Positions 14,401 to 48,652 of a DNA stretch of 48,652 nt are shown piece by piece (positions within the stretch are counted from its first letter, which is position 1; every line of letters begins with the position of its first letter). The translations under genes and the position numbers were made by a program. A model generated the notes under the pieces. The model saw only the letters and a list, made by a program, of their open reading frames with translations, ran no database searches and was not told where the DNA came from. The DNA lies in contig JBFLGF010000226.1 in assembly GCA_050230475.1 (NCBI GenBank), positions 62,001-110,652 of the forward strand. Direction: 5' to 3'. The DNA is from Ancylonema sp. (taxonomy: Eukaryota).

Positions 14401-14774
14401 GGGGAAGGGGAGGGGGGGGACTGGGGGGGGGGGGGGGGGGTTGACATCAAGCACTGAGCAGCACAGTGTGGACTGGTGAGGGATATTGTGCCTGACTGCC
14501 AGTGTATTGCTGGATTATGCTTGTGCAGCCACGGGAAACCGAGGACAACCGGGGTGTGCGCCAGTCTGGTAACGTCCAAGGTGATAGTCTCCGTGTGGTT
14601 GCTTGGAGATCTGAGCTGCGCCGAAAAATAGCAAGTAATGGGGCCAGCGGCTGGGGGGCTGCCATCTATAAGCTCGACCGGGATAGGTTGGGGATGGGGG
14701 TGGGTGGGTAGGTTGTTGTCTGACAAAAGCTGGGGGTCGATAAAGTTGCCTGACGCCCCAGAGTCGATCAGCAC
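11479..14774 (-). pseudogene. Chromovirus pol (PR-RT-RH-INT-chromodomain), frameshifted
   Basis: LIDSGASGNF; LRLCVDYRKLN, KIDLRNAYHQLR, LLDDMIIYS; EADASDFGLG, YDKELLAIV; SLDWITDLP, FHPQTDGQTERLN; chromodomain VLDSKFVRGRLFYLVDWVGYEESERSWE. Confidence 0.95.
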
Positions 14775-14884
14775 TTTGACAGATATGGGCGGGAGGGGGT
14801 AACGGAGCAGATGGCAGGCCAGCAGAAGCTGGCGGGGGTGGGGAAAGGGGGAGGGTAGGGGAAGGGGACCCGCACAGACCCCTC

Positions 14885-15971: not shown

Positions 15972-16047
15972 GAGGAAAACTGAACTGAAAAAAATGATTT
16001 TTTTTGCCTAAAAATGTTAAAAAACCTCAAGTGTATTCCTATCAAAG

Positions 16048-17162: not shown

Positions 17163-19030
17163 ATGCAGTGGTCACGAGATAGTAAAGGTAGGTTGACAAA
17201 ACTAGAGATAACTAATCCTTTTAAAATTGTCGATCCACGAGCTGCACCAGCTGTCGACAATTTAAATTGTCCACGATCACCGGACATCGATATAGTTACC
17301 ATCGAATCACTAGCTGCACCAGTTGTGGATAATATTATTCATACTGATATTGACAATACGGCTGCACAGGGTGTCGATATCCCTACATTCCATTTACCTA
17401 CCAATCTTCTTGATACCAATTCCGCAACCCAAGTGTAATTGAAATTTGAACCCAACAAATTGACACGGTCTACATCAGAACCAGAACAGCCTGTGGAACG
17501 CCTACCTACAGGCTCCATTAACCTCAAACTTGTTTTGATTATTGACAGAGAAGACCACATCGTCGATACCACAACACCTGTGGCTGGACCATCGACAATT
17601 GTTCCCGCTACAACGCCACCAAGAGCTGCAACAACATCCATTTACCGACACAAGATAAAAGGTGGGAGAGACTCTACCATGGCTAACCCAACCGTTACCG
17701 ACATATACTGAAGAAACTGGTGTCAAACAAGACGAATTCATCAATAGTTTGAGACGGTTAGACCGAACCCAACAACGCACATAACGTATGGGGCATGTAC
17801 ATTGGGACTTAGTACTTGCAGTGGGTCAGTATATGAAGGCAGAAGCTCATAGAGAATGGCAACAATTTGTACGAGACAACCGTGGTACCACTACTACGGA
17901 AGATATTCGAGACATGTACCAAGAACATAATTCAAACATTGCATATTATCGTCTGCAAGGTAGAGTGGATTGACAGAATGCACCGATCAAACCCACAGCA
18001 TCGGCGGCATAACCAACCGAATTGGAATTGTTCATCACTATCATCAAAAATCGTTTTCGATCTTCGGCTGCAGAATTTGTTACTCAAATTGAAACATTTT
18101 CAGCCAGACACAATGACAGCGTCGCAACCACATTTGCACGCTTTAACGAACCAGCAACTTTTAGGGATGTTACGTGATGGGTGTGCAAGGCAGTGTGATT
18201 CTTTCCGTACAAGGAACTTACGTCTCTCAGAAATGATCAATGACAAAGTGTTGTGTTGGATGAATAATCTTGAATGGTCGGCATCGTGTTGGTATACCAC
18301 GATGCCTCGTCCACAACGTGAATCTACAAAGCGTGCCGACGGTCGTGTCTGCGAACCGTCCGTCGGCCTATCATAACTCAACAACAGTCAGATCCTGTCA
18401 ACGGCACACGCCGGACAGTCTGACAAAAAAAACATAACGTCTAGATTCGATTCGGAACCATCTAGACCGCACGTGCGTGCTACAATACAAACGGTACAAC
18501 CGAAACGTCATATTCGGGTGCCCGGACATAAGTCCGGCCCCTCACTCAATATAAGCAAGCACACCCTAGGAAAACCTAGGAATACACTAACCGGCAGTCC
18601 GGACTAGCACGCTAGCAAACATGGCTATCCGATTAATTCCCATCAACAATTGTTCAAGAGACACGAGCCATGACAGAAGAACAACCGGCTAGGAGGTATC
18701 TACCACATATTCCTCTACCACTACAGCCTTATATAGACGACTGGCATTTTCGTGAGTTAGAGGAAAGGTACTACAAAACTCCACCAAATCCTCCTATCAC
18801 CCGGAAGGAAATCATGGAGAAAGCCAACAAGGTTGAATTATTACGTATGAAACAAGACGCTGACAACCGCGCAGTTGGGATCACCAAAACTCCTAAACTA
18901 CTTAAATAAACTCCTTCCACTCCTTACACTACTCCTAAACCAACAGACGTATTGAAACCACGACAAGATAACAGCATGGACTGCTACATTGCCATCAGAT
19001 CGGACACCTTTTGCGTGATTGTTCAGCACC
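17163..19030 (+). pseudogene. C1 gag, decayed and interrupted by a solo copia LTR
   Basis: GHVHWDLVLAVGQYMKAEAHREWQQF aligns with D gag GHVQWDTIKYGGQFTKGVAHDVWKKF; ELLRMKQDADNRAVGITK matches F (ELLKMKQDGDNRAAGITK); frameshifted knuckle CY-CHQIGHLLRDC at ~18982-19023. Confidence 0.8.
18152..18645 (-). repeat. Solo LTR of the copia A family
   Basis: Colinear with 1331-1791; flanked on both sides by C1 gag sequence; ends slightly degenerate and TSD not clear. Confidence 0.88.
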
Positions 19031-19597
19031 AAGGAAACATAAAAACTTCCACTCATCAGGTTACCAGTCTGAGAAAAAATCCAAAACCAACCAACCTTCA
19101 GGATCATAGTTTAAGGGAGGTGTGTAGGAATGTTCGGATAGCCATGCCTTATGATTGTTAGTCCGGTTGTGACTGGTTTCTCTCACCGGGCGCCATATTC
19201 CTAGATGTGCTTATATGCGGGGCCGGACACGATTGTGTCCGGGCACCTGATATGTTGCCACGCTTGATGTCGACACTTAGAGTCGTTAGTAGCGATTAGC
19301 ATGCTTGACGTGTCTTGATTGATTAGATCTAGTCATGTCAGGAGTGTCCGGCATGTGCCGTTGACACATATAGATGAGTTGTCAGTCAAGGATAGGCCGA
19401 CGGTCAATTGTACCGACCGTCGGCACACAGCAATCTCTAAAGCGCATCGGGTATTACCATCCCCGATGCGATCACACTAATTCGTTCCACACACGCAACT
19501 CTTGTCTCGTTGATCATCAGTGATAGAGATCCTTGTGCGTACGATTCGTTTGTCGCCCACCAAATCTCCTGCACGTCTAATCGCTCAAAAGCTTAAA

Positions 19598-19610
19598 GGT
19601 TATGGGCCCA
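19598..19610 (+). promoter_or_regulatory. Primer-binding site complementary to an internal (anticodon-arm) segment of initiator tRNA-Met
   Basis: GGTTATGGGCCCA directly after the LTR; also at 30225-30237 (-) and 39668-39680 (one mismatch); matches the Drosophila copia-type half-tRNA PBS. Confidence 0.8.
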
Positions 19611-19853
19611 CGTGCGGTCTAGTTTAGACGCCGTGTTGGTTAAGAACTACAGGCTCCACGCGATCCGCTGCGAAGATCTCTGTGACTCTGTGAACGTGTG
19701 AGGGCAAATTTAGCCGGGTTATTAAGCGCTGCACGTAATTTCGACATTGCGTGGCACGAAAATTGAGCTGTGAGCTGCATTGCAGGAATTGCACCACTGC
19801 GAGCTGAAAGCTGGCTGATAATTCTCGTAAATCCTACACAATTGTTGCCATAA

Positions 19854-22800
19854 ATGTCGGACAAGTCGCAAATTCCGCAGTTTACTGGAGCAGATTATAC
19901 AAGATGGGCCTTCAACAAATATGGGCTAGCAGACCAAAAGTTGCATCGTGTGGTCATGGATTGGGACAGTCTTCTCCGGCGGCGTCGTTCAGTGGTTATA
20001 TTTCCATTGACCGCAGATGAAGAGCTTCAATTTATTGCTAGGGGGATCGACATTGATGTCGAGAGGAGGACCAAGGAGCAGCGGATTTCCCAGCGGCTGC
20101 CACAGCTCGAGACATGGGACGAAGAGAATCTGGCTGCCATGGCCTACATTGTCAAGCATTTAGGTCCCTCGGAGCTGACGCACGTCACGGACTGCACGAC
20201 AACTGCCGGGATGTGGGAGGCATTGAAGACATTCTATATGGTGCAGGGAGCGATCGAGATCGCTAACACCGAGGCGCAACTGAGCGCGATTATACACGCG
20301 GAGGCTGAAGACCTCAACGTCTACGTGAAGCGGCTGTAGCAGATTCATCTGGTTCTGAAGAATCCGGGTGCGCCGGTGACGCTGATGAAGCAGGCAATCA
20401 ACTTGCTGAACTCCCTCAACACTCACTACAGCCCCATGGTGTCGACTCTTATGCCGTGGTCGGAGTCATCACCGCATCTCTTCACGATTCCGCACATCAT
20501 GAGTGCGCTGCTGCGCGACGACGTCCGCAAGGAGCTGAATGAGCGGAAGAGGGGGGCGTTGCCAGGAGGTCACAATGCCAACTATGGTGAATCTGGAGGG
20601 GATAGCGGAGCTGGAGGAAGCGGCAGACCTGGTGGTGGGGGTGGAGTCGGTCGCAGAGACGCTGGAGGCGTCGAATGCTTCAACTGCCACCAATTCGGCC
20701 ACATCGGGGTGAACTGTCCATCACCAAACGTTGGCGGAGGCCATGCCGGAGGTGGGAAATGCCACAGGTGCCACCAGGCAGGCCATAGGGCTGCGCAGTG
20801 CCCTACAGCATCGCCAGCAGCTGCAAATGTCGGACATGCACATCAGGGAAGTCCGGGGGGGGAGATCAAGAGTAGATACTGCAAATGTCGGGCATTCCAT
20901 TGACAAATTTAGAAAACGTGCATCTGATATATGGCATTGATGAACCCAGAGGCTACTCGAAAGGGTGAAGCACAGGCTAGACTTGCTCACTTTGCCAACA
21001 CACCTTTCGATGCCAATGTGGATTATCTTGCTTTCGGTGCATTCTCATTTGATGTTGCCCGAGCTCTGTCTGCTGGTTCTCACAAAGAGTCTCTTCCTGG
21101 ATTCAGGGGCTACTCACCACATCTTCACCGAGCGTGAACATTTCGTCGAGTACATCCCAACCCTGAGCACGCAAAGAGCCTTCATCACCACTGCTGACGG
21201 CTCGTCGCACAAGGTGACAGGCACGGGTTTCGTGCACATCCGAGTCAGGAACGGCAGCTCGTTATTCGTGCAGCCTCTCAACTCGATCCACGTCCCTACC
21301 TTTGCCTGCACCCTGGTGTCGACGTCATGCCTCGTCAAAAGAGGTGGGTTGAGCCTTCTTACAGCTGCCCACGGGTCTTGAATTGAAGAAGGGGGATGTG
21401 AAATGGGCAAATGTAGTTGAACAGCCTAGTGGTCTCACTTTTCTAGCCGCTTACCATCATCATGCCTGGGTCTCACAATACCACAACGAACTTATATCCA
21501 CAGGCATGATCTTCTGGCATCACAAACTGGGTCACCCTGGTGCTGAATGTAATGTCAGACTTTGTCAGACGTGGAGACATCCCTAAGTTAAGTTTTGAGG
21601 ACTCAGCTGAGGTCAAGGGTTGTCAGGTTTTATGTCAAGGGAAAATGCAACAGTTGAGTCACGCCATGGCCAACGAAGATCTAGGGACATGCCCCAAGAT
21701 GGGACGCATCCACCTGGATCTGATTGGACCACTTTCCGTTAGGTCTGCTAATGGAGGTTTCACATATGCACAGTAGTGTCCACACGTTTTTCAATTGTTA
21801 GTCTACTGAAAACAAAGGATGAAGCACTGGACCGAGCAAAGGTCACTATACAGTTGCTCGAGGCACAATCAGGGTTGCCACTACAATCTATCAGGACAAA
21901 CAAGGGTGGAGAGTATGTGTCTCAGGACTGGATGAACTACTGTGGGGGGGAGGGCATTGATAAACAAACTACAGATGCGTACAACCCTGAGCAGAATGGC
22001 ATATGTGAGAGACTGAACAGAATTTTGACATAAAAGATGCGTTGTATACTGATCTGGTCACGTTTACCGGGATTACTGGTCACGCTTATTGGGATGTCGC
22101 ACTCTTGCATGCAAATTGGTTAAGGAACAAAACCCCAACTAAATCGCTCGCTGGCAAAATACCCATTGAAATCTGGGAGGGAAAGAAGTTGAAAATGAAC
22201 AAAAGTCATAACTTTGGGTGTCTGGTGCAATACTTGAAAGTGGGGGTGGACAAAATCAGGCAAGGGGACAAGTTTGCCCCTCGCACTTGCTTTGGTGTGT
22301 TTGTGGGGATGGTTGCGGGGAGTGCAGGCTACAACGTATTCGACCCTCATAGGGCGGGGGTGATAGCGCGCACGGACGTGCGGTTCTTCGAAAAGGTGCC
22401 GGGGTACCCGAAACTGATGGGGAGGAGATCTCCCCAGGTTGAGGCCAACGCAGAGAAACACGTCTTCTATTTGTTCCCCGACACCGACGCTCAGCCCCCA
22501 GCAGCAGTTGTGCCAGCAGTAGCAATTCCCCTAGTAATGCCAGCAATCTTGCCAGCAGTGCCAGCACCAGCAGTTCCAGCAGCCCTAGCGCCAGCAGCTG
22601 CCAATAACCCCGCGCACGTACACTTCCAACCACAAGCTGCTGAGGTCCCCATCGATGCGATTGAGCTGTCTGACAACCAGTCAGGGATCAACAATGCAGG
22701 AGGTGGAGATGGAGGGGAGGAGGAGGTGCAAGGAGGGGGTGCGAACCCACAGGCGGGGGAGCCAGGCAGCATAGCTGAGCGGGTGATGGCCAGGCGGGGG

Positions 22801-23530
22801 GGCAACTTTGCACAATATGGGGACATTCTGTGGTGCGATGGGGAGGAGTTCGACGACGAGGCTCACGCCAACTATTCAACGACCGAGTGGGAGCGATATA
22901 TAGCGACCGGGTGTCAATATGTATTTAAGGTCAAAATCACACCTAAAGGGGATATTGAAAGATATAAAGTCAGACTGATCGCACAAGGATTCTTACAGCA
23001 AGAAGGGATCGACTATAATGAAGTATTTGCACCAATTATTGACGGTACATCTATCACCCTACTCCTCGCTATAGCAAACCACTTTGATTGGGAACTAGGA
23101 GAGATGGACGTGATCACAGCGTTCCTGCATGGACGTCTAGAAGAGGAAGTATATATGAAAATACCACCGCGTATGTATATTGAAGGGGGTGCTGAGGGCA
23201 AGGTTTTGCGATTGAAGGGTGCTTTGTACGGACTGAAATAGAGTAGCCACGTGTGGCAAGAAATGTTTAAGAAGTTCATGCTTGCTGAAAGGTTCAAACA
23301 GTGTGTCATGGATACTTACATTTACATGACAGGGGAGGGAAATAACAGAATCGTACTAGGCATTCATGTTGATGACTAGGTCATAACTGGTCCAAACGCA
23401 ATGGTGGTGAAAACATTTAAGGGGGACATGGGTTAAGAGTTCAAGGTCAAGGATCTGGGTCCTCTAACCCATATCCTGGGGGTGGAAGTGAAAAGAGATA
23501 GACCACGAAGACTGCTAACACTGGGACAGC
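19854..23530 (+). pseudogene. copia B1 gag-pol
   Basis: CFNCHQFGHIGVNC, LDSGATHH, IHLDLIGP, PEQNGICERLNR, YKVRLIAQGF, MDVITAFLHG; several stops and frameshifts. Confidence 0.93.
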
Positions 23531-26422
23531 TGGGCATCTGTTCTTCTATAGGGAAGATTGGGAAAAAAGTGATCTCTGCCTAGCATCTTTACCACTCACT
23601 ATACGCCACCAGTCAAACAAATTGGAAGTTTATATGACAGACAGTGCTTCACCATCTCTGACCCTCACACCTCGTGCTGCAACTCTCTAATAGAAGGAGA
23701 AGAAGGCCACAACAGACCAAACTGCCCGAGATAGTGAATCCGCACGTGTCAGCCCACGCTGTTCCACTCAATTCGGCTCCCAACCCGAGGAGGCCGTTTT
23801 TTCTACCTTACCACCGGTCAAAATCGTAGCAGGTGATTATGAGGAGAACTATCCCCCTACACCTGGCTCCACACGTATCGACCCTCCACTTGAGTTCACA
23901 GTGGATTACGGGGAGTCGCAAGAAACTATGGACACATCTCAGCAGGCCCAAGTACGACAACAACTGTACGCTGAAATTGAGGACAAAAGTAAGCGCAGAT
24001 GCATTCCTGAGGCGTTGGGACAAGCCAAGTTTATGGACTTCAATAAACCAATTACTTCACGAAACAATGGTTGTCAAACACTCTTACGTGCTGCTGGGTT
24101 CAACGACACAACCAATCTTGTACATACCCCTATGGAATTAGATACCTCAACCATTTCATCCTCAACCATTCAAACCACACCTACCTCACCTCTGCAACCT
24201 CCACTTGCTTCAAGCACTCAGCAATCTTTCAACCAATCTTGTGGATCCAGACCTCTCCAGACTTCCATTTCTGACCCTTCGAACTTGACGAGCTACACGA
24301 GCTTACCGAGGACGAATTGCGCAAACGCTACCACGACATGATCACTGAGCGGAAAATTTTCCAAACCATTATCTTCAAAGCGGCCAATAGAGAGGAAGAG
24401 GCAACCATCACGCGCAAAACGCAAAAACTCATCAAGGAGCACAACTTCATGCTCAACTACAAATATGAGAAGGCACAACTCGAGGTGGCTGCAGCGCGTG
24501 AGGAGGAGAACGAGAAATGGACCCAACGATATGACCTCCAACTGGACACACTCAACTCCACTTGGGCAGACAAGCTGCAAGACCTGGTAGTACACCACGA
24601 TAAGAAACTACTGGATGTTTGTCTGGAAGCTGCTCGTCTGGAGAAGCGGCTGCAGATTGAGATCGGCAAAAATGTATTGCGTGGAGAGAAGAAAACTCCG
24701 ATCCCCATCTCTCCACTAACCAGCTCAGCACCATCGACATCCCTTAGTCGTGCACCTTCTCGTGCTACCAGTAACCCAACTCCACCAGCGGGTGATACCA
24801 TGGACACTACAAAGGTATGGAGACCTGGTACCACTGTTGCGCGGAAAAGGGAGGCGAATTCAACTCACCCCATTTCCCCAAGTGAAGCGCGTCCCGCCAA
24901 CAGGCAGAGGATGCACACTGCATCACCCTCCACGGAACCACATCGCGTAGAGGCTTACCTCATGGATAGCAGACGGTCTACACAAACTACCCCTAGTTAT
25001 TCATCTCAGCTTCCTACTCCCAGAGATCCCGGGCAGGCGATCGTCATGGCAATAGAGATGGAGGCCACAACAAAAAGGCCACTCAGTGCATATGCAACCC
25101 TGCGAGACCCCCGCGACAAAACCGACGTTGCACAACGTCTCGCACGCACGAACACCACTCTGTCAGATTTTACCTTTAAACAACCATCAATTCGTCCTGC
25201 CATGGCGCACCTCCTCAATATAGGCGTTGTTCCTAAAGCCTTCTTTGGAGCTGATCGCAGCACATTGGTGGATTATATTTGCGCGCCAAAAGTCTTGCAT
25301 TTTGGCGACGCCCACTACACAACCATCAGGCGTCAAGGCCAATCACATCTTTGGGAAGCACACCTCAAGATAGAACACGACTACCAACCACCCAAACCTT
25401 CCCTCACCTGGGCAGGCCCAATCTTCCATAGCGCATACGCACTTCCACGCACCATCATCTCCACGCAAGCAACATCTAAAGCTTGTGGACTACACATCTA
25501 CATCCCATTCGGCAATCTAGAGATCGTGGAGATGTGTCTCGAAGGCGGCTCCATCGTGGCCAACGTCACGCCGCAGACAAACTGCATTTTTACAAAAAAT
25601 CGCTATCGGCAAAAGTTGCGCCAGTTGCAACGTCGCTTCCCAAACCAGGTGCCGAACTCTGCAATCGAACACTGCGACGAGATCTTTTAAAAAGCGTCAC
25701 CGACACGACTACGGAGTAGATGGATGCCCTCTGCCGTCAGAAAGGCCCCTTCGACGTGGTCGGCGGCAACTACCCCATGGAGGTGGAGCACACCTACAAC
25801 CCCCTGCGTGGCGGCTACGATCATCGCCTCGCTCCTCTCCTCGCAGTCATCAAGTGTATCCATTACAGCGCCAGGCTCGCTAAGTTCTACTCGGTGCACA
25901 TTTTTTACACCCACATAGGGACACCGGAGTATCCTCCCTGGGTAAATGACCTATACCACGTGGCGCGCGCATTCCTTGGCAACGGTGCAGAGCTCCAACC
26001 ACTTTGTTTCCAAGGTCACGTCCATCGCCCAACTCAGGTTTGGACCAACTACATTACTCCACGCGAGCTGGAACTGGCGCAACCAAACAAGCAGTACCGG
26101 GAACCCTTGCCAACCATCCTGGAACCTGGGCACACTGCTCGAATCATGACCCTTCCCGACCTGGTGAATCACCAGCTCAACCGCATGGGCAACCGCCTTG
26201 CCGTTTTCCCAACCTTGAGTCCTTACCTCTGGACATCCAACTATACGCGGCGATCAGATGGCCGACCAGGCATCGGCATGTTGTTCGATGCACCTTCTCA
26301 GCAATACGTGCCACCTTCCCCATTCGAGATCGAGCGCGCCCTCGGACGACCTGTTGGCTACACGGCGCATGCACGCATCATCTACCCCATGCGCGCATCG
26401 CATCTGGGCCACATGATGGATG
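23531..26422 (+). pseudogene. C1 accessory ORF: low-complexity and coiled-coil region followed by a C5 DNA-methyltransferase-like domain (~25400-26422; last ~17 codons at 30709-30758)
   Basis: ORFs 24317-25690 and 25720-26427; GPFDVVGGNYP, HVHRPTQVWTN, ILEPGH, FPTL, EIERALGRPVGYT, RASHLGHMMD occur in C5-MTase motif order; homologous to 45257-47082. Confidence 0.7.
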
Positions 26423-29400
26423 TATAAGCCTTTGAGTGATTAGACGTGCCGGAGTGATTAGACGTGCCGGAATAATTAGGGGGGCGACAAAACGAACCGT
26501 ACGCAAAAGGATCTCTATCACCGCTGATCAACGAGACAAGAGTTGCGTGTGTGGAACGAATTATTATTGTGATTGCATCGGGGATGGTAATACCCGATGC
26601 GCTTTGTTGTGTGCCGACGGTCGGCACAATTGACCGTCGACTGACAGCTCTTCTACATGTCAACGGCACATGCCGGACATTTCTGACACGACTAAACAAG
26701 CCAATCACGACGCTTCAAACAAATAACGTCTTTAAGCGTCGGAAACATGTCAGGTGTCCGGGCACAAACTTGCCCGGCCCCGCATATAGGCACATCTAGG
26801 AATATTGCTCCCGGTTAGAGTAACCGGTTACAACTGGACTAGCAAGCAAAACATATGGCTATCCAAAATATTCCAACACACCCCCTCGGATGCCATGCTA
26901 AAGTTGGCATAGATGTAGACACAAAAGGTAGTACCCAAGTCATTGCCAAACATGGAGAACCATTGCATAACATATAAGCAGTTTTGGTCTTCCCTAGCAT
27001 ACAAGCGTGCTAGGGGGCCCTATCGACATGCAGCCGTTCGGAAGCCGATCGGAACTCCATGAAGTCGAAAGCTCCAGATCCTTCGTTTAGGCCGAACTGA
27101 ACATACAAAATACCACAAGTGGCGAAAAACAAAAAAACAGAAAATATTTTTGAATTTTTAACTTTTTCAACTTTATGATTCTGAAAATTTTACACTTTCC
27201 AGTCAGAAAAATCTCAAAACAGTAACTTCAAAATTACACCAGTCCTATCAGCACCAACTTTTGACACAAGTTTTTGCAACAATATGATTAGGACATACAT
27301 TCGAAAATTCAGAACAAACTGAAGTTTAAAGTTGAGCAGATCCGCACTTTCTGATCTTAAAGTGTCCTTAAGTGTCCTTAAGCGTTTTCAAGTGTTCTTT
27401 TCAAGGTATTAAGGTAAGAATGTGACTTATCTGGATGAGCTGAAGTTGTTGTACCCTCCCCATTACTTCTTCATGAAAGAAACATAACAACACACCCCGT
27501 GCCAACATGCATGGCATTCGAAACCTCTGATCATAAAAATAAAAGAAAAGACTGACACCCCCAATTCAGTACAACCGTCCAAAACCTAGACTTTTGCTGT
27601 GTCTGTCCAGTAAAACTTGAGGAAGAGCTTTGGTTAGCATATCTGCTGGTTGATTGGCGCCTGGCAAGATACACATATTTTAGTCTCCCCGTGCTGTGGC
27701 ACATTCCCGTTTCGTACCTGCTGTCAGCAGACTCCTCTCCAGACTTTTACTGAATACCCTGCTGGACGCTATACAACCAGCTTTTCAGCTCACTTATCCA
27801 TCCAAATGACTTCAAACTAGATACAATACACCTCTAGTCAACCCTATCAGGCACCTGACTAGCTTTACAGATCAGATCAACAAACGACAAAATACTCAGC
27901 CCAATGTAAAATATTTGCTGGAGTACTGGTGGCAGACTGTGTGCAGACTCCAGAACTGCATTTATCACCCTCAGTCTATCCTCCACAAAAAAAACTTGGG
28001 CAGGAATGCCCCCTACCATAACCAAACATGACTTAAATCTGTCCCACACCCCCTAGCATCAGCTAGCACACCCCCATGACCACTACACCAGACCGCGCAC
28101 ACATCCAGCCGTTAAGTCAGGCGGGGCGTAGGGTTTGGAAGTTAGTAGGTGTGGACTGTTTGTTATGACACCTGTCCTGATCCTGGACCTATCCCTCACT
28201 AGGGCACCCTCATACTTCTTGATATCTGCCTGCTATCACCTAGCAACTCCTCTAGGATCTCATTCCGGTTTTCCTCCCTAAACCACCCAACTTGCCTTCA
28301 AGTTCATGGACTTAGGTGTTACAGGGATGGTTGAAGGTAGGGGTAGAGGCTCATGAGCTTCAACGTATTTGATTTGAGGGAAGGTAAGGGTTGAGGTTTC
28401 AAAGGTTCAGGCATGCGTTGAACTAGATTCACTTGCATCCATCTGGGCTGAATAATGGAGCCCTGCAACAAGAGCAATCCATTATGCCCCCTTTTCACCT
28501 CACACCACTTCCTACCCCCCCTAGTCAAACTAGACACACCCCCCACCTTCAAGTGGAACTCCACATCCCCCCTCTCGTTCAGCCGCGTCATGCTGACCCC
28601 AGGTGCTGCTCAATGCTTGGCACATGGAGTGCCGATCAGCCGGCGATGCACCACTTCCGAGCCACACTGCAAGGCAAGGGTCACGATCCCGCTCCCCTTC
28701 ACCTCGTGGGCTTTGTTGTCAGGCGTGTAGACGGAGTCGGGGCTGGCCAATTGACTATACCCAGGCATGCAATCCGAACTAGGATAGATGTGGTCCGATG
28801 CACCCGAGTCTAAGTTCAAACGCCCCTCTTTCTCCTCATAATCCCCGCCTCCTGCTGAAGATGCTCCATACGCCCTATGGAATGATAAGCAAACAGGATC
28901 GTCGGAGCATGCTGCAACCCTCGCTTGAGCTCTGTCCTTAGACTCGCAATCACTCAATTCATGCCACTGTTTGCCAAGGTAACGGCACTGGATTTCTGCT
29001 CCTCCCTGATGTTTTGATGGGGCCGCCGCTCTGCACTGTGCGGCTTTATGTCCTGGCTGAAGGCACCTATGGCATTTCCGAGCTCCAGCATGGCCTCCGC
29101 CAACGCCTGGTGAAGGACAATTCGCTCTGATGTGGCCAAATTTGTGGCAGCCGAAGCACTCGACGCCTGCAGCGTCTCTGCGACCAGCTCCAGTCCCACC
29201 ACCAGGTCTGCTGCTGCCTCCAGCTCCGCTACCCCCTCCAGGTCCACCATAATGAGCTTGGTGACCTCCTGGCAGCGCCCCCCTTCTTACGTTCATTCAG
29301 CTCCTTTCTGACGTCATCGCGCAGCAGCGCACTCACGATGTGGGGAATCGTAAACAGATGTGGTGACGATTCCGACCACGGCATCAGGCGTCGAGACCAT

Positions 29401-30703
29401 TGGGCTGTAATGAGTGTTTAGGGAGTTGAGCAGTGATCGCCTGCTTCGTAGGAGTTACTGGCGCGCCCAGATTCTTCAAATCCTGGTGTAGCTGCTGCAG
29501 ACGCTTGACATATACGTTGAGGTCCTCCGCCTCAGTCTGTATGATCGCGCTCAGCAACGCCTCGGTGTTCGCGATCTCCTCCCTGCACCTGGTAGAATGT
29601 CCTCAGGGCGTCCCACATTCCGTTCCGGCAGCTGTCGTGCAGTCCGTGACGTGCGTCAGCTCCGAAGGTCCCAAATGTTTGACTATGTAGGACCTGGCAG
29701 CCAGATTGTTCCCATTTCTCGTCTCGAGCTGCAGCAGCTGCTGGGAAATCTGCTGCTCCCTAACCATTCTCTCGACGTCATTCTCTCGACGTCAACGTCG
29801 ATCCCCCTAGCGGCCAATTGCAGCTCGTTGTCTGGTGTCAATGGAAGTATCACGTCTGGGCGACACCTCCGCGGCATGCTGTCCCAATCCATCACCAAAC
29901 GATGCAGCTTCTTGTCCGCCAACCCATATTTGACCTTGAAGGCCCATCCTCTGTAATCTGCTCCAGTGAACTGTGGGATTTGCGACCTATCCGACATTGT
30001 GGCAGCAGTAATTTCTCACTCAGCTCGAGCTCTCACTGCAATTCCTGCACTGCAGCACTCAGCTCGAATTCTTGCAGCGCAATGTGAAAATTCCGTGCAG
30101 CCCTTAACAATTACGAATATATTTGCGTTCACTGGCAGAATATACCGTTCTCAGAGATAATCGCAGCGAAATCGCGTGGAGCCTTTAGTTTTTAACCAAC
30201 ACGGCGTCTGAACTAGACCGCACGTGGGCCCATAACCTATAAGCTTTTGAGTGATTAGACGTGCCGGAATAATTAGGTGGGCGACAAAACGAACCGTACG
30301 CAAAAGAAGATCTCTATCACTGATGATCAACGAGACCAGGAGTTGCGTGTGTGGAACGAATTATAATTGTGATTGCATCGGGGATGGTAATACCCGATGC
30401 GCTTTACAGATTTGTTGGTGTGCCGACGGTCGGCACAATTGACCGTCCGGCCTATCATTGACTGGACAAGCTCTTCTAATATGTCAACGGCACATGGCGG
30501 ACATTTCTTGACACGACTAAACAAGCCAATCACGACGCGTCAAACAAATAACGTCTCTAAGCGTCGGGCAACATGTCAGGTGCCCGGACATAAACTTGCC
30601 CGGCCCCGCATATAAGCACATCTAGGAATATTGCTCCGGTTAGAGTCACCGGTTACAACTGGACTAGCAAGCATAACATATGGCTATCCAAAATATTCCA
30701 ACC
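26423..30703 (-). mobile_element. Ty1/copia copy B2; INT and RT missing and replaced by unrelated DNA
   Basis: LTRs 26423-26878 and 30238-30703; PBS 30225-30237; PPT 26879-26887; imperfect TSD GGATG/GGGTG; gag and PR at 29997-28610; RNaseH tail (NQPADMLTKAL) at ~27570-27710. Confidence 0.9.
28450..29997 (-). pseudogene. copia B2 gag-protease
   Basis: MSDRSQIPQFTGADY start, CFGCHKFGHIRANC, CHRCLQPGHKAAQC, LDSGASDH. Confidence 0.88.
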
Positions 30704-31654
30704 GGGTGGACGCTTCATCCTATTCATGGCGGAAATCCTCCAAGGAACCAAACCATAGGAATCAACCCTCACCTCGGAACAAAGGTATTTACCAACCTCA
30801 ACTCCGGGGAGGAGGGACACTGGATCTTCTGGTTAGATGATTTCTACCAATCCTGCAAAACCTTACGGACGGAACAAATCCAAATGGAAAGACAACAGTC
30901 AACCTGGCGATACGGGCCCACCGGCCTCATTCAAAAGTCCACACACCACATTACGACCTAAAAATGCATCGAAATCGGGTCCACGACCACGACCCTCCAC
31001 TTCCACCAAACTAGTTCCGAAACCAAAATTAAGGCCTAAAATCCCAACGGTCAAACCTACCCTTCCTGGTCCACGACATTCTGGTCTACAGCCCTTGTCT
31101 AGTCAATAGAATAATACCAGGCATCAATCTCAATCATTTCTTGCAACCATGGATATCGAACCAACCACGGAGACACTCTCACCCTACATCTCATGCTCCC
31201 TCTTACCAAAGACGGAAACACCAACAACAACAGCATGACGATTTCTCTTTTCTCATCCACACTTTCAAATACCAACCTCCTACACCACCTACAGTACCAC
31301 CTGTACAACTAAATTTCTCTTTATCACCATATTCTACCTCCATATCCACACTCTTGGATACTCTCAGTTTACCAGATAGCTTGCCAGATTTGCTAGAAGT
31401 ACCATCTTCACCAGATTATGAACACATTGTTTTTACTTATCTGGATGACTATACCATTCCTACCAACACTCAGGGATCTGCACCTGGCCCTGATGCACTT
31501 TTTGCATTATTACGTACAAGGTTCCCCACCACTGGTGATCCTGTATTAGCCTCACCACACAGTACTGTCCCACAACCACGGCGTACTTTTCTCATGTTCT
31601 TACACCAACTCGTCTGTTGCTCTTTCTTAGCTCCTTCACGACCGTTCTACAACT

Positions 31655-31742
31655 GGGGGGGGGGGGTGAGAGTAGCCGGACCACCAAGTCCACCAGATAA
31701 TCTTCTTCTACCACCTCAGACCATCATCGATACCACACGTCA
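31655..31742 (+). repeat. PPT (G12, 31655-31666) plus short B unit (31667-31742) closing C1
   Basis: G12-TGAGAGTAGCC...CACACGTCA, followed by TSD TGGT. Confidence 0.72.
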
Positions 31743-32855
31743 TGGTTAACCCCCCCACAGTGTGCGTAGTGAGCCCTTTGTGTATAGTCGGACTCTTTGT
31801 ATTGCCATGCCCGTGGTAATTTCTTTTGGTTATCCTGTGACTGTCCGTAATTGCCTCCCTTGAATGGTACCATGGCAGTGGTTGACGATGGCGGAGGGTT
31901 AGGACGTGTCGACAAAGGAGGTGAATTCGTCGATGATTTTTCTTTCCGAGGTAAGGGACAATCTCTGGAGTAGTGCCCTTATTGGTGACAATTGTAGCAT
32001 TCAATCGGCTTGTCGGCTCGAGATCGCGGGAGATCTGTAGAGAAGCTGACGTGTCGGAGAGAATTGGATGGAGTCCCCTAGAAGCTTCACCGCTCCAAAT
32101 GTCGACTAGAGCTGAGGTCCGGCCTCTCCTGCTGCTCGGTACTCAGAGCCAACTTTGGTGAGGATGAGTTCGAACCCATCAGTTTTGAGCATGAGCTCCT
32201 CGACTCAGATTGGTGGAGTAAGCGTTGTCTCATACAATTTATTATCAGTCTGTTGAATATACCAAATGTCTACCAGCTCACGAACTCCCTTCGGCAAATG
32301 TTTCTTCAGTTTGACCACCACTTGTTCCGTTGTCATAGCCTTATGCTCGACTACTATCTCTGCACGTTCTTTGAATCGACTGTACAAAGAGGAGACAGAC
32401 TCAGTGGGTGACAATGGTTTAAAATTTTGAATCTTGGTGATGTGTTCATTGATACACTCTCGGATTCGGTCACGTAGTTCCTTGCAGAATTGGGTGAGTT
32501 CGTTGGGTTTTGCTCCGGTTAGCGGTGTCTGTCTGGCCATAGGGGTGGTTGGGAATCTGCTTTGTGTCCGCCAATTATACGTCTCAGAATTCTTATCACG
32601 GTGGGTGTCTCGAGTGGCCATAATAGTTGCATCACCAAGGTTGTCTTTTCTAAACTTTTTCCAGACGTCGTGAGCAACACCCTTTGTAAATTGACCTCCA
32701 TACTTGATGGTATCCCATTGAACATGTCCGTTCCGTTCGTTTGAAGTTTTGTATCTGTAGTATGACCACAATGCATCGATAACTTCCTCTTGTTTCTCAC
32801 CAACCTCTCTAGAATACAAGGGTACTTTATGTTTAGACATGTCGTTTGTTGTGGT

Positions 32856-34348
<1,493 letters not shown>

Positions 34349-39211: not shown

Positions 39212-42200
39212 TGTTAGAATATTTTGGATAGCCATATGTTATGCGTGCTAGTCCAATTGTGACCGGTTACTCTACTAACCGGGAGCAATATTCTAGATGT
39301 GCCTGTATGCAGGGCCGTGCAAGTTTGTGCCCGGGCACCTGACATGTTTCCGACGTTTAGAGACGTTATTTGTTTGAAGCGTCGTGACTGGCTTGTTTAG
39401 TCGTGTCAGAAATGGGCATGTGCCGTTGACATGTAGAAGAGCTGTCAGTCAATGATAGGCCGACGGTCAATTGTGCCGACCGTCGGTACGCAACAATCTG
39501 TAAAGCGCATCGGGTATTACCATCCCCGATGCAATCACAATAATAATTCGTTCCACACACACGCAACTCCTGTCTCGTTGATCATCAGTAAAGAGATCCT
39601 TTTGCGTACGGTTCGTTTTGTCGCCCACCTAATTATTCCGGCACGTCTAATCACTCAAAAGCTTCTAGGATATGGGCCCACGTGCGGTCTAGTTCAGACG
39701 CCGTGTTGGTTAAAAACTAAAGGCTCCACGCGATTTCGCTGCGGTAATCTCTGTGAACGGTATATGCCAGTGAGCGCAAATATATTCGTGGTTGTTAAGG
39801 TCTGCACGTAATTCTGTTGACATTGCGCTGCAAGCTTTCGAGCTGAGTGCTGCAGTGCAGGAATTGCACTGAGAACTCGAGCTGAGCGAGAAATTTTAAA
39901 ACTACACAATAGGCCATAATGTCGGATAGGTCGCAAATCCCTCTTTACTGGAGCTGATTATACACGATGGGCCATCAAGGTCAAGTATGGGCTGGCGGAT
40001 AAGAAACTGCACCGTTTGGTGATGGATTGGGACAGTTTGCCGCGAAAGTGTCGCCCAGACGTTATCCTTCCATACACCTGATAACGAGCTGCAATTTGCC
40101 GCCAGGGGGATCCGTGGGTGAAATATTGGTCAGAGAGCAGCAGATTTCCCAGCAGCTGCTGGAGCTGGAGAAATGGGAAAGACAATCTGGCTGCTGTGTC
40201 ATACATTGTAAGCACCTAGGTCCTTCGGAGCTGACGCACGTCACGGACTGCACTACAGCTGCCGGAATGTGGATGCCCTGAGGCATTCTACCAGGTGCAA
40301 GGTGCGATCGAGATCGCAAATACGGAAGCACTGCTGAGCGCGATCATATAGACAGAGGCGGAGGACCTCAACGTGTACGTCAAGCGTCTGCAGCAGCTGC
40401 ACCAGGATCTAAAAAATCTGGGGGCGCCAGTATCTCCGACGAAGCAGGCGATCAACCTGCTGAACTCGTTAAACACGCATTACAGCCCAATGGTCTCAAC
40501 GCTGATGCCATGGTCCGAGTCGTCACCACACCTCTTCACGATTCCACACATCGTGAGTGCGCTGCTGCGAGACGACGTGCGGAAGGAGCTGAATGAGCGG
40601 AAAAGGGGGGCGCTGCCAGGAGGTCACCAAGCGCATTATGGTGGACCTGGGGGGGGGAATGGAGCTGGAGGTAGCCGCAGATCTGGTGGTGGCACTGGAG
40701 CTGGTCGCAGAGACGCTGCAGGCGTCGAATGCTTCGGCTGCCACAAATTCGGGCACATCAGAGCGAATTGCCCTTCACCAGCTCCTGGCGGAGGCCATGC
40801 GGGAGCTTGGAAATGTCATAGGTGCCACCAGGCAGGCCACCGAGCTGCTCAGTGCCCTGCGACCTCGCCAGCAGCTGGAAATGTTGCGCACGCTACTCAG
40901 GGAAGTTCAGGGGGGAGGCAGAAGTGCAGGATATTCAACATTATAGGGCACACAATTGAACATTGTAGAAAAAGAACATCTGACATGGCTCTAATGAACC
41001 CAGAAGCTGCTAGGAGGGCTGATGCACATGCTAGACTTGCTCGCTTTGCTGACAAAAACCCTTCAACGAATGTGGATTATTTAGCTTTCGGTGCTTTCTC
41101 GTTCGATGTTGCCCGGGCATTGTCTGCTGGTCTTCACACAGACTCCCTGATCTTCTGGATACAGGTGCTACCGACCACATTTTCACGGCACGTGAACATT
41201 TTGTGGAGTACACACCTACCCTGAGCACGCAGAAGGCCTACATCACCACTGCTGACGGCTCGTCACACAAGGTGGAGGGCACTGGCTTCGTGCACATCCG
41301 AGTGAGGAATGGCGACGCTTTTTTTGTGCAGCCACTCAGCTCGATCCACGTCCCAACCTTTGCCTGCACCCTCGTGTCGACCTCGTGCCTCGTCAGAAGA
41401 GGTGGGCTGAGCTTTCTACAGCTGCCGCCCACGGGTCCAGAATTAAACAAGGGAAATGTGAAATGGGCTGATTTGCAGCAGCCTAGTGGTCTGACTCTGC
41501 TTGCTGCCACAATCGTTATTATTATGCCTGGATCTCATGATACAACAGCGAATTTGTCCACAGGCATGGTCTGGCATCACAAATTGGGTCACCCCAGTTC
41601 TGATGTGATGTCAGATTTCGCCAGACGTGGGGACATCCCAGAGTTAAGTCAGGGGGAATTAACTGAAGTTAAGGGATGTCAGGTTTGCTGTCAGGGGAAG
41701 ATGACTCAGCTCAGTCCTAAGGTCAGTGCAGATCTGGGGACATGCCCCAAGATGGGTCGCATTCACCTGGATCTCAATGGACCACTGTCTGTCAGGTCAG
41801 CTAACGGGGGATTTACATCTGCTCAGACAGGGATAGAGGTATCCACACGTCTGTCATTTGTCAGCTTGTTAAAAACAAAGGATGAAGCACTGAACCGAGC
41901 AAAAGTCACTATACAATTGCTCGAGGTCCAGTCAGGTCTGCCCCTACAGTCTATACGGACAGACAAGGGAGGGGAGTATATGTCTCAGGACTGGATAAAC
42001 TACTGTGGGGGGAAGGGTATTGACAAGCAAACCACAGAAGCATATAGTCCTGAACAAAACGGAATCTGTGAAAGACTGAATAGAACATTGATAGAAAAAA
42101 TGCGATGCATATTAATCTGGTCAGGTCTACCGAAGTCTTATTGGGATGTGGCATTATTACATGCAAACTGGTTAAGGAACAGAACACCCACAAAGTCGCT

Positions 42201-42950: not shown

Positions 42951-43309
42951 AAAAATCATATTTTGATAAGCTTGCAAAGTTTTAGGACGAGGTGTTGAGT
43001 TTTCAATAATTGGTGAAACTTCCTAGACGGATCAGATTCATAGTTTTCAGAGGGCCCATGAGGAGAGGACGTTTTCCATTTGGGGGGTGTAGTACATTGC
43101 GGTACATTGGGAGAGATCAGTAGTACCAAAAAGTTGGGGGGTGACTTGGAGTACAACATGCGAGCGGCTTTTGAGATTGGGATTTAGAAGATACAATAAG
43201 TTGTTTTTTTTTTAATAATACAAGTTTGGGAGTAGGGGGTGTGGTATTTTCAATTAGGGGGTGTATTGAGATATAATTGTAAATGCAATCGTAGCTTTTC
43301 ATTGGTTAA

Positions 43310-44397: not shown

Positions 44398-44604
44398 TGA
44401 CGTGCGGTTTGGAGTCGGTTGCTCATGATGGGTTTCTGTAGAATTCAAAGGTGTCGTCGATGTAGTCGATCGTTGTTGGAGAGTATTGAATGGATGAAGT
44501 GTTGTAGGTTCGGACTTTTGGAGTCAATGGTTCTTGTATGTCTTCGGCTTCAGCAACTACTTCTCGATGGTCATGTAGTGTTCAAGGTGGCTCGGTTGCT
44601 CTCA
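44398..44604 (-). repeat. B unit of element F (207 bp), preceded by a PPT at 44605-44615
   Basis: Minus strand G9AG-TGAGAGCAAC...CCGACTCCAAACCGCACGTCA; ends nearly identical to 38538-38742. Confidence 0.8.
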
Positions 44605-45256
44605 CTCCCCCCCCCAAGCTACGGAACTTTCGTAGAGAAGCTAGGTCACAGCACCAGACGAGTGTGTGAAGGATGGTAGTCAGGTAATTGGTAGTTGGTT
44701 GTTCAGTTGTAGGAGAAAGTGGTGTAGGTTCTGGGGAACGGTTAAGTAAGGAGTGTTGTTCACGTTGACGTTGGTTGAGATATGGTTCCAAGTTTTTGAA
44801 ATGCCATGGTGTATAAAGTTGTGGAGACGGTGTAGATGGTGGTGATGGTATAGGTTCCTCAAGCAATTATGGTAAACTATCGGGTAGACTATTAGAGTCG
44901 GATAGAGTATCGCTAGAAGTGGTGTAAGGAGATACGTAAAAATGTAGTTGGACTGGTGGTTGGGGAATAGGTTTATGAATTCCCAGGGTCAAATCAGAAA
45001 AGCATTCACAGTGTGCTTTGCCGTTGTGATAGCTTGGTTGGTTGTATTCTGGTTTCCATTGGCGTTTTGGTTTATGTTGTTGCCAGGGTGGTATGCTGGC
45101 AGGTGGATGTTGTGTAGAAGTGAAATAGGATTTTGTTGTTGGTTTTTTCTTTTTGTTAGTAGATTTTGATTTATTCCCGAATTGGTAAGTCTTGTTGTTC
45201 CTCCCCCCCAATGGTGGTATTGGTGCATACCTGGTGTCCGGGGTGAGGGTTGATTC

Positions 45257-47082
45257 CTATGTGGTGAGTCCCAAATGTAGTCTTGCAAGAAAGTTAGTGA
45301 TGCAGTCATCCATGCAGTGCCCCAAGAATTGTACACGTGTGGGTTGATCAATCATCTTGTGTGCAGTGATACCGATTTGGAGTCCCAAGGCGCGTTCCAA
45401 TTCGTATGGTGTGGGTGCCTACCATTGTTGAAGGTTTGCGTCGTCGACCATGCCAGAGCCCGGTGTCCCATCTGGTTTGAGGAAATAGTCGGGTGAGTCT
45501 AGGTATGGTGGAAGTTGGGGAAGAACGCACCGTGGGTGATCATAGGTGTTCGGGATGTGAGGTGTAGCTTCCTCCATAGAGACAGGTACCGCAGTATGGG
45601 TTGGTTCCAGCACGTGTTTGTCTAGAGCGAGTGCAAATCTACGTTCTGGTATGCAGTAGTGAAGTTCGCGTGGTGTGAGAATGTTGGTCCAGACTCGGGT
45701 GCGTCGAATGACATTTCCGGCCAAGGTGGCTGCGTCTATAGTGACTGATGGTCCGAGGAAAGCTTCAGCCAAGTATCCATGTTCGATGGCCCACAGTGGA
45801 CATTCTGGGTAATCCACATGTGTGAAGAAGAGTTGACGGGGTAGAAGCCATAGATCTCATTGTGCCAATGCAGCCATGATAGAACTGCGAAGAAGGGTAG
45901 TATACGGTAGTCATTGACCCCTTGCAGTCCACAGAATGATCGGCGTGTCTCCGTGTGCTAGTTCCCCCCCACCCTGTCAATTGGTCCATGTTTCGCGACT
46001 AGCTCCCCCATCTGGGCCAAGGTGACGTCTTCTGCTCGGGGTGGTAAGATAATGTGGCAGAGATCAATGGCTGAATCTGGTAATAGATGTGGGTAGATGA
46101 GTTGGAGTTTTTGCATGTTTTGCCGAACTACATTTTTGCGGTGCAGATCCGGTGTGGCGACGTTGACGCCTTTGATGAGTTTGCCTTGTTTGAGGATGTA
46201 GGTGAGTGGGGCCAGGTTTGCGTTAGGCCAGGAAATCCAAACGTGCACTCCTTGGGTGGAGCACTCTTCACGGATGTAGCTGATAGTAGAGGGAAGAGGT
46301 TTCGTGCCATGGAGTGGGCGTCCCTTCCAGGTAAGAGAGATGGGTAATGGTTGTGTGGTTGCTTGAGCTCTGGCTCTCCCTGAGGTTAGCACTTTCGTGC
46401 CTTGTCGTGCATGTTCATGTACAAAATGGGTGATGATGTCTGGTTGGGTTGGTTTCTATATCTGCCTTTAAATTTCTTCTTGTTGAATTTTCTGGAGGGT
46501 TGGAGGAATGATTTTCTAGTCTATCATGGTTTGAAGACCGGGTACTGTGAATGCGGAGGTAATTTGGAATGGGTTGGGGAATTGACGTATGATGGATCTG
46601 GAGATTTCTACAACTGTGAGATCCCTTTCATCTTGAGGGTATGCAGTGACCTCGCGTGGCGCACGTAGGCGAGATTTTGCTTCCATGTTGGTGATGAAGA
46701 GTTGTCCCAAGATGGTGTTTTCTCTAGTTGCGATATGTTGTACTGATGGTCTTATCGAGGAGAGTGGTTTTGACTTGACATGTTGGGGTGTAGATGTTGG
46801 TGAGGGTGTTGCGCTGGGTCCACGACTGGTCGTGGGATGCATGACCAAGTATGCTTCTACTTTTGGGATGGTAGGTAGTGGAGGAATATTTTGTTGATTT
46901 TTTTTGCGGCTGAGAGATCGTGCATCACTGGGAGATATGGGTCCACGTTGGTGGTCTTGCGTGGTACGTACCCTTGCAAGAGTGGTGATGTGGTCTGAGT
47001 CTCCCATAGGTGCATCATCGTCGGAGTCAGAAGATCCCGTGACCTCTTTCCCTTTTCGCAATGCTTCCCTTTCCTCTGCCAA
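45257..47082 (-). pseudogene. F accessory ORF with C5 DNA-methyltransferase-like domain (~46340-45257)
   Basis: YPHLLPDSA, GPIDRVGGN, FLGPSVTIDAA, RRTRVWTN, VLEPTH, GTPGSGM, ELERALGLQIGIT, RVQFLGHCMD; broken by stops and frameshifts. Confidence 0.72.
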
Positions 47083-48574
47083 TGTTGATGGGAAATTTCT
47101 CGCTAGTAGGTCCCAAGCTCATTTCTTGAGATCCAGATGCAGTGACGTAAGGTGTTCCAATTTTGAGCATATTTGCAGTGATGCCCATGCGATTAGCCAT
47201 GGGTCTGCCAATCATAGTATTAATAGCACCACTGTCAACTACACATTTGTTTGGTATATGGTCATAAATGGTCAAGACGCCTTTGTTGTTTTTGAGAAGC
47301 GCAATACCGAAGTTGGTGTCTTGTCGGCTGCGGTTCTTGGTTTTTAGTGGGTCTGACACTGCGATGTACAGCTCTGGTGGTGTGGGCTGCAGTGCGTCAA
47401 GTAGTTCCTTGACCTGATGTTCGGCCTTCTTTGCCACCTGCAATTGGGTAGGTAACGCAAGTACATGTGCATGCAAAGTGTCATGAAGTGCTTGTGCTTG
47501 AGGTAGTGGTAGAGGAGGTGGTGCCTTTGTATCATGAAATTGGTTCATGTTTGTTGTCCCTGCCTCGAGTCAGTTAGGAAATCTTGGTGTAAATGAATTC
47601 GGAATTTTAGAAGAATACCCCTGTCGTCTGCCATAATCTTCACCTTCCCTATTCTACATGTCCAACAATGTTTCTGGATGTGGTTATAGGTAAGGTGTGG
47701 TAGACGTAGATGGTTCAGGGTCTGGTAGATAATGCAGTGGTAGTGGATTTGGTAGAGGTGGAATGGGTGTTCTTGTATCCTCTCTTGAAGGTGGTGGTGT
47801 GTGGAAGTCCGTGTTCGAGCCTGAGCTAGGCGGTGTATCAAGCTGAACAAGTGGGTCATGAAATTATGTTTGTTGGTTCTTTGCAATCTGCTTTTTCTTC
47901 TTGGCGGATAGTCTGGTAGACAACCTGGTAGTCATGAGACATTGACATGGTATCGTGTGAATGATTACCTGCTCTGTTCCCTGGTTGTAATAGGACATAG
48001 CCTCCAATTCCCGGTGACGTTCCAGATCTGACTGCATGACAATGTAACTTGGTTGTTGGTCACGTTTGGACCATCCCAGTAACTTTGGTTGCTCTGCAGC
48101 ACGTGTAGTTGCCAAGGTAAGTAAGTTTTGTGCTTTGAATTTCCTGCATTGGTCTTTTGTGTGGTGTCGTCCTATGCAGTATTCACATTGTGCATCAATA
48201 ATACATTGTTTTGCATCATACTGTCGTTCGCGAGGTTTGAATGGTGGTGTGTTTTGTTGTCTATTCTCTTGGTTGCCTCCATAGTTTCCTCCCTTGAACT
48301 GTGTGTTCTATGAAAGGTTAGTTTTGGAGCCTCCTGTCTGGTTTTGAGTTGTGGACTGATAGTTGTTTGGTTTCTTGTTTCCAGGACAATCCCGAGCCAG
48401 ATGAGGTCTTCCACAAGAAAAACATGTCAATGGGATGTCCGACCGTGGTGGAAATCCATTGTTCTCTCGGTGTTGTGTGGAAGGAGTAGAAGTTGTTTGT
48501 GGTCGAGTAGGAGTATAAGATTTAGTAATTCCTGCAGCTCGATTATCTCCGTCTTGTTTCATTTTGAGGAGTTC
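47075..48574 (-). pseudogene. F gag C-terminus and aspartic protease N-terminal half
   Basis: Knuckles CFSCGRPHLARDC and YCIGRHHTKDQC; KCVVDSGAINTMIG. Confidence 0.82.
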
Positions 48575-48652
48575 CGTTGGAATATTTTGGATAGCCATAT
48601 GTTATGCTTGCTAGTCCAGTTGTAACCGGTTACTCTAACCGGGAGCAATATT
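48575..48652 (+). repeat. Start of a copia B-family LTR (runs off the window)
   Basis: GTTGGAATATTTTGGATAGCCATATGTTATGC matches 39212 onward and the reverse complement of the 30238-30703 LTR end. Confidence 0.9.

Follow-up and report, generated by a model that had tools for sequence, protein, structure and literature searches.

A DNMT3-derived domain without its catalytic residues in Gypsy-like retroelements of Ancylonema sp.

The window analysed here, that is, the whole stretch of 48,652 nucleotides at positions 62,001 to 110,652 (forward strand) of contig JBFLGF010000226.1 of Ancylonema sp. (assembly GCA_050230475.1), is a nest of decayed eukaryotic retroelements composed of Copia and Gypsy pieces. 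Two of these carry a domain of the C5-cytosine methyltransferase type with altered catalytic motifs, referred to below as copy 1 and copy 2. The N-terminal part of copy 1 (25400..25687, plus strand) contains motifs I–III, with IPFGNLE (25502–25522) and no FxGxG at motif I, and is followed by a short broken stretch (25688..25719) with a one-base frameshift (near 25688–25692) and an in-frame TAG (25717–25719), across which the relative P0040 reads open. Motifs IV to X lie at 25720..26422, where the motif IV region is GPFDVVGGNYPME (25744–25782), the motif VI position reads HIFYTHI (25897–25917), and HRPTQVWTN (26023–26049), ERALGRPVGYT (26332–26364) and LGHMMD (26404–26421) represent motifs VIII, IX and X. 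Re-checking of the coordinates placed every motif quoted in the initial annotation where it had been reported.

After motif X, the frame of copy 1 is interrupted by a degenerate Ty1/Copia element (26423..30708, minus strand), foreign to the methyltransferase element, and it picks up again at 30709 with the C-terminal helix of the domain and a TAG stop (30709..30758; stop at 30756–30758). The insert has two long terminal repeats (LTRs; about 26423–26879 and 30229–30703, 95% identical over 444 aligned bases), a primer-binding site, GGTTATGGGCCCA, adjoining its 5' LTR, and flanking target-site copies, GGATG (26418–26422) and GGGTG (30704–30708), that match at four of five bases, the second copy being counted within its limits. 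Because the uninterrupted relatives P0004, P0006 and P0048 (database fragments 80–87% identical) span the insertion point and end in the same terminal residues, the join of 25400–26422 to 30709–30758 made in the initial annotation is exact. It is not, however, the sole repair that the domain needs, as the frameshift and the TAG inside it had been missed. Frameshift, stop codon and Copia insert together show copy 1 to be dead. Members of the same Copia family, with the same primer-binding site and with LTRs that seem to terminate in TA instead of CA, are found at 19124–23535 (plus), 26423–30708 (minus), 39212–43100 (plus) and 48576–48652, and the family has inserted at least three times into the Gypsy-like family (at 26422, 19121 and 48575).

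Upstream of the domain, the same open reading frame (24275–25690) encodes a charged helical stretch, possibly a coiled coil, and a Ser/Thr/Pro-rich linker (24275..25399, plus strand). The linker is 26% identical to that of copy 2, and the stretch as a whole has no family match in Pfam or the ESM Atlas, where its charged N-terminal 140 residues gave no match above 0.79. For the coiled coil proposed earlier, a simple heptad scan gave a weak signal at residues 96–127 of the 24275 frame. Neither a Pfam domain nor a Cys-rich finger, and hence no ADD domain, was found in this upstream frame. A by-eye likeness of 23530–23600 to the last strand of a protease, which would have put the protease directly 5' of the linker, was unsupported in two profile tests and was rejected.

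Copy 2 (45257..46332, minus strand) belongs to a second subfamily, shares 36% identity with copy 1 in an alignment of 354 columns, and is broken by stops and a frameshift. On the same strand, 47078..48575 contains the end of a gag, with a CCHC knuckle (48424–48386), and the N-terminal half of an aspartic protease (VVDSGA, 47242–47225), so that the order of the element is gag zinc knuckle, half protease, an internal deletion beginning within the protease, linker and domain. This gag/protease part matched the Pfam family gag-asp_proteas with E 7e-5, under the curated cut-off, and a protease profile with E 6e-6, and it is homologous to a neighbouring gag-protease-integrase-PHD element at 8075–10340. 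The neighbour (minus strand) is a Gypsy derivative without reverse transcriptase (RT), also cut inside the protease, of which half remains, and its gag-protease linker is 62% identical to that of copy 2 over 47 residues. Two further gag frames of the family of copy 2, which have in common an FKGG motif after the zinc knuckle, lie at 31750–32936 (minus) and about 17800–19121 (plus), and a degenerate Gypsy element at 11400–16000 (minus), a putative chromovirus, has gag, protease, RT, RNase H, integrase and a chromodomain-like tail.

In both copies the frame stops after motif X. Since the copies agree in the stop, in the region beyond it and in a G-run with TG after it, the loss of any downstream pol is old. 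The G-run, followed by TGAG at the corresponding place in each copy (31655..31672, plus strand, in copy 1), is polypurine-tract-like and may be where a 3' LTR begins; for neither methyltransferase element was an LTR pair found within the window. Profiles for RT, RNase H and integrase found no match in the remaining stretches of either copy, and both copies have 5' deletions. The earlier observation that these domains are missing thus holds for the stretches present, and a non-autonomous element is plausible; the deletion of copy 2 begins in the protease, however, and copy 1 has no 5' end, so that all three domains could have lain upstream. The element could also have been an autonomous one bearing the domain as a 3' accessory frame.

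Direct searches with the window pieces gave no methyltransferase match in Pfam (both pieces) or among PDB sequences, and the link to methyltransferases was made only through intermediate relatives. When a 235-residue piece of copy 1 was searched against 1.84 billion representatives, 25 proteins reached E<=0.001, a match beyond chance: 18 belong to a group with canonical motifs, six are short relatives (close or middling) and one is a repeat artefact; 11 of the 25 contain Pfam DNA_methylase above its curated cut-off, several of them inside Gypsy polyproteins. A profile built from 17 canonical-motif domains alone matched copy 1 with E 3.1e-30 and copy 2 with E 1.5e-30, and the N-terminal part aligned without rearrangement to the N-terminal halves of canonical retrotransposon DNMT3 domains (hhalign probability 95.7%, E 9e-9). 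By alignment and profiles, motifs I–X are present in order and collinear with canonical DNMT3-type domains. Against the PDB, the family profile, which includes canonical rows, ranked DNMT3B, A and C first (DNMT3B E 1e-19, DRM 5e-8, M.HhaI 2e-7). Two relatives, P0005 (apparently chimeric) and P0019 (the repeat artefact), were dropped. The only named relatives are Closterium proteins (e.g., CAI7850249.1 and CAI7911866.1), a loose pointer to a host among the green algae or non-seed plants, and no relative was found in phage records, IMG/VR or JGI metagenome contigs.

The predicted fold agrees with these searches. An AlphaFold model (pLDDT 75, 26-row alignment) best matched DNMT3C, A and B (Foldseek E 8e-7), and in a structural comparison DNMT3 chains took ranks 1–34 (Z 9.9, rmsd 4.4, 182 aligned); M.HhaI was matched too, its Glu119 and Arg165 mutants being among the matched structure titles. 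An ESM Atlas feature search with the window sequence alone listed three neighbours, all DNA_methylase clusters (0.94, with the family on 18–39% of members), which had 154–168 features in common with the query, slightly below the 170 typical of same-family matches. In a model of the N-terminal part of P0040, strands and helices alternate, and its top five Foldseek rows were DRM at E 0.01–0.03, short of the 0.001 mark. The domain therefore belongs to the DNMT3 lineage, closer than to DRM, bacterial or DNMT2 enzymes, and the methyltransferase-like domain of the initial annotation finds its fold match, although Pfam DNA_methylase gives none.

To follow the catalytic motifs, we used a derived alignment of 14 rows, composed of the two window copies (with X at breaks) and 12 metagenome fragments from the ENA; the counts given for derived rows cover only the rows spanning each site, three to nine per site. 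Left out of the motif counts were P0003, P0008, P0032 and P0046–P0050, none of which spans motif IV, together with P0024 and the near-duplicates P0034 and P0035. The derived rows form three subfamilies, 28–36% identical to each other, and in a midpoint-rooted tree of 23 rows, from which eight short derived fragments were excluded, the six derived rows make up one clade (support 100/99).

The catalytic Cys of motif IV is present in 0/7 derived rows (Thr in six, Met in one) vs 12/12 canonical rows; one of the seven, P0039, is a frameshifted fragment whose register is less certain. The Glu of motif VI is likewise absent (0/7), with Tyr or Phe instead in every row. At motif VIII the first Arg is retained (6/6), while the second is replaced by Thr in all six rows, a residue found there also in the canonical row P0026. 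Only three rows cover motifs I and II, and in these the motif I Gly is always Asn and the motif II acid is missing (0/3). P0048, outside the count, gives the same reading at the motif VI and VIII positions. The family form of motif IV is G-N-[WY]-H-T-E, its H-T-E common to all three subfamilies, as are the other replacements (F..H and Thr). The initial annotation was thus right that copy 1 has no Pro-Cys at this position, but its YPME is a decayed version of the family form: a single base separates the codons of its P and M from those for H and T in copy 2 (CCC/CAC and ATG/ACG, respectively). A His follows the motif VI position in 7/7 rows, and the His of motif VIII is found in only 2/6.

Among 34 columns at least 90% invariant in the canonical relatives, 19 are kept and 15 lost in the derived family. 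The lost ones fall in the cofactor site, the catalytic loop, motifs VI and VIII and part of the recognition loop, and the kept ones are mostly structural or belong to motifs IX and X. None of the seven derived rows keeps the S, A or G of the catalytic loop, and the G and T of the recognition loop are each kept in 4/9. Judged from this alignment, the loss of motifs is a property of the whole family and not decay of copy 1, and we are confident that the family is a conserved pseudo-enzyme. The pseudo-enzyme proposed earlier is borne out by less-decayed family members, which also have no normal Cys and Glu motifs; both outcomes named at the time as speaking against it, the absence of a fold match and normal motifs in relatives, were looked at, and neither was found. 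The C5-methyltransferase mechanism needs the Cys, the Glu, the Arg and the glycine loop, and because these are gone, methyl transfer is predicted not to occur.

The two window copies are identical at 0.53/0.58/0.34 of first, second and third codon positions over 302 codons, compared with 0.73/0.80/0.35 for an integrase pair in the window. The ratio of nonsynonymous to synonymous substitution (dN/dS), a check suggested with the initial annotation, was about 0.28 (dN 0.69, dS 2.47; pN/pS 0.54–0.72 by bootstrap), a pattern of divergence which indicates that the copies diverged under purifying selection. As the replacements are common to the subfamilies, by parsimony the loss predates their divergence, and selection would therefore have acted on a domain that was already dead.

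The region after the stop is also conserved. In both copies the UAG is followed by the 8-nt spacer GAAUCAAC and a stem-loop (30759..30816 in copy 1; with the stop, 30756–30825, plus strand, and 45190–45259, minus strand), which we regard as a candidate readthrough signal. The stem-loop has z-scores of -2.93 in copy 1 and -1.71 in copy 2, and 13 pairs in common, three with one-sided and none with two-sided changes. Beyond it, copy 1 has a conserved reading frame without an early ATG or a Pfam match (31033..31749, plus strand), in which the block 31296–31400 is identical to copy 2 at 0.34 of third codon positions vs 0.77 and 0.83 at the others, a coding signature. The post-stop frame of copy 2 (44582..45256, minus strand; about 225 codons with a single internal stop and without Met) continues the frame of the domain, while in copy 1 it lies in a different frame. 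A readthrough extension of about 225 residues is thus possible from the sequence. The arrangement recalls readthrough at MuLV gag (murine leukaemia virus) and SIRE1 pol/env, and Tca2 gag, where an in-frame stop is likewise followed by a short spacer, RNA structure and a further frame (PMC2194720, consulted in part); here, the structure is a stem-loop from two sequences only, rather than a demonstrated pseudoknot. Likeness of stop context is not proof, since the similar context of Tca2 gag gave no readthrough in yeast (same source). Rfam gave no match in the window, and one JGI match (L001) to a 20-base stop-context pattern was dismissed as a chance match of 20–23 bases on an unrelated contig.

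A use for such a domain is suggested by the face through which DNMT3 proteins pair. By alignment to DNMT3B and with DNMT3A numbering, two positions of the domain presumably correspond to F732 and F772 of DNMT3A. The F772 equivalent is Phe in 8/8 derived rows and aromatic in 4/17 canonical rows, which together are the sister group, and the F732 equivalent is hydrophobic in 7/7 derived and 10/15 canonical rows. These two residues lie at the FF interface of DNMT3, where DNMT3L acts without touching DNA (PMC10908127, consulted in part). The roles suggested in the initial annotation, as a decoy, an anti-silencing factor or a DNA binder, are hypothetical; the pattern of lost and kept residues favours, as far as an alignment can indicate, a protein-partner role over canonical DNA binding. 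With the FF face hydrophobic and the DNA-contacting loops degraded, a DNMT3L-like role, in which the domain would bind an active DNMT3-type enzyme through the retained face, is favoured over a tether, a spacer, new chemistry or decay, although we hold it tentatively and at somewhat less than even confidence.

Such a role could have arisen as follows. In a Gypsy-type lineage, a DNMT3-derived domain exchanged its catalytic and cofactor-binding residues family-wide and, by the reading preferred here, afterwards stayed under purifying selection. It would be made together with the Gag-protease protein of the element and would travel with the new DNA copy, where binding of an active DNMT3, from a sister element or the host, may alter the methylation of new copies or their landing place. 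The partner might be either helped or blocked. The moss DNMT3b, which carries out de novo methylation of heterochromatin, illustrates a plausible host target (PMC6453930, consulted in part). The full scenario, in which a retrotransposon lineage without RT evolved its own DNMT3L, a selected dead DNMT3 that steers or blocks methylation of new copies and bears a readthrough C-terminal extension, is speculative and on the whole doubtful. Transposon anti-silencing proteins such as VANC offer a general precedent.

Several points weigh against the partner role and the steps leading to it. No intact full-length copy was found, all 12 counted relatives are short metagenome fragments, and only three to nine rows cover each site. 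The sister-group link may be due to long-branch attraction (stem 1.39), dS is near saturation and the dN/dS estimate comes from two decayed copies, and the fold match is not independent of homology, as the AlphaFold alignment contained canonical relatives. The FF positions may be hydrophobic for folding alone, and their mapping depends on the DNMT3B alignment and the DNMT3A numbering. In contrast to DNMT3L, the domain is without an ADD but still has motifs IX and X and the recognition region at full length, and neither a host DNMT3 nor an active helper element was seen. A predicted complex of the 235-residue piece with the canonical protein P0013 scored 0.00 in two runs in which the alignments were unused and the partner fold was uncertain, and is evidence neither way.

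The dead domain might instead be a tether that binds DNA or chromatin with no methyltransferase partner, and guides integration or shields the element's DNA, as captured MBD or PHD domains may do. The first Arg of motif VIII, motifs IX and X and the full-length recognition region are retained, as this would predict, the new conserved His, Thr and Glu line the former active site, and PHD fingers occur in related Gypsy proteins. Yet the catalytic and recognition loops are the parts that contact DNA in C5 methyltransferases, and their residues are the ones lost or mixed in the derived rows. A captured non-enzymatic methylation reader is known in CopiaMBD (PMC6673714, consulted in part), and on this balance we consider a tether rather unlikely.

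Selection on stability alone would be enough if the domain were a mere folded spacer, without partner or ligand, in a polyprotein or readthrough product. Most of the kept residues are Gly, Pro, Trp and Leu in the core, the frame after the stop is conserved, and dN/dS is looser than the <0.2 of active retrotransposon DNMTs (PMC5890265, consulted in part). However, a domain of 350 residues that closes a frame could simply have been deleted, and the replacements at the old active site are not core residues and are common to the divergent subfamilies, which makes a spacer unlikely. Very unlikely, in our view, is a remodelled pocket that performs new, non-methylating chemistry or uses the new His/Thr/Glu and Tyr-x-His to bind a metal or small ligand: H-T-E in all three subfamilies and the invariant His after the motif VI position would suit it, but the His of motif VIII is not shared by the subfamilies, and no C5-methyltransferase side reaction is known to work without the Cys. 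That the copies are decayed fossils of an ordinary active retrotransposon DNMT3, as the breaks in both and the decayed YPME of copy 1 might suggest, is highly improbable given the same replacements at each catalytic site in three subfamilies forming one clade and the bias of divergence to third codon positions.

Some of the closest known systems are active enzymes. In Klebsormidium nitens, a DNMT3 with conserved key residues lies in the Pol of Gypsy elements named KnitGypsy-Dnmt3 (de Mendoza et al. 2018; PMC5890265, consulted in part). These elements, together with the Closterium and metagenome relatives, resemble ours in that an intronless domain of DNMT3 type, under purifying selection, lies downstream of gag and protease in a Gypsy-like element; the motif order is the same and identity is 20–24%, the Klebsormidium elements having been compared by description only. 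The window domain differs from KnitGypsy-Dnmt3 in its replaced catalytic and cofactor residues, its stop after motif X and the absence of RT, RNase H and integrase from the remaining element. Canonical relatives mostly have W-E-C-Q instead of P-C at motif IV and E-N at motif VI (P0012, P0016, P0020, P0021 and P0025; several from Closterium), and their DNMT3 is found within Pol either ahead of RT or between RNase H and integrase. Thus, the order is gag-protease-DNMT-RT-RNase H-integrase in P0012 and RT-RNase H-DNMT-integrase-PHD in P0020 and P0025, and RT follows DNMT in P0028 too, unlike in the window copies.

Among dead or non-enzymatic proteins, DNMT3L, the inactive DNMT3 partner of mammals (PMC10908127, consulted in part), is likewise derived from DNMT3, is without catalytic residues, is predicted not to bind S-adenosylmethionine, and has hydrophobic residues at the FF-equivalent positions; it is, however, a host gene with an ADD domain and of independent origin, whereas ours is carried by a retroelement, retains motifs IX and X without an ADD, and is a putative partner binder. 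CopiaMBD of arthropods likewise retains a non-enzymatic domain from the host methylation system, but it is a working reader with shown binding in an autonomous Copia, and the window domain is a disabled writer in a Gypsy-like element, whose binding is only putative (PMC6673714, consulted in part). By defining features read from the sequence, the domain falls outside the active C5 methyltransferases (PF00145), KnitGypsy-Dnmt3 and DNMT3L. Our literature search, whose coverage of subscription journals was thin, found no report of a catalytically dead retrotransposon DNMT, and no inactive forms appear in the parts consulted of PMC6338049, PMC12344493, PMC12477816 and PMC9940879.

Why retrotransposons keep DNA methyltransferases is an open question, for which the published guess is self-methylation of new copies. 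Continued selection on a domain that has lost all its catalytic residues indicates that it serves some purpose other than methyl transfer, and comparing the dead member with its active sister makes such a use testable. A dead retrotransposon DNMT3 would parallel the origin of DNMT3L in mammals and, as Pfam does not detect domains of this kind, they will have escaped surveys of methyltransferases in transposons.

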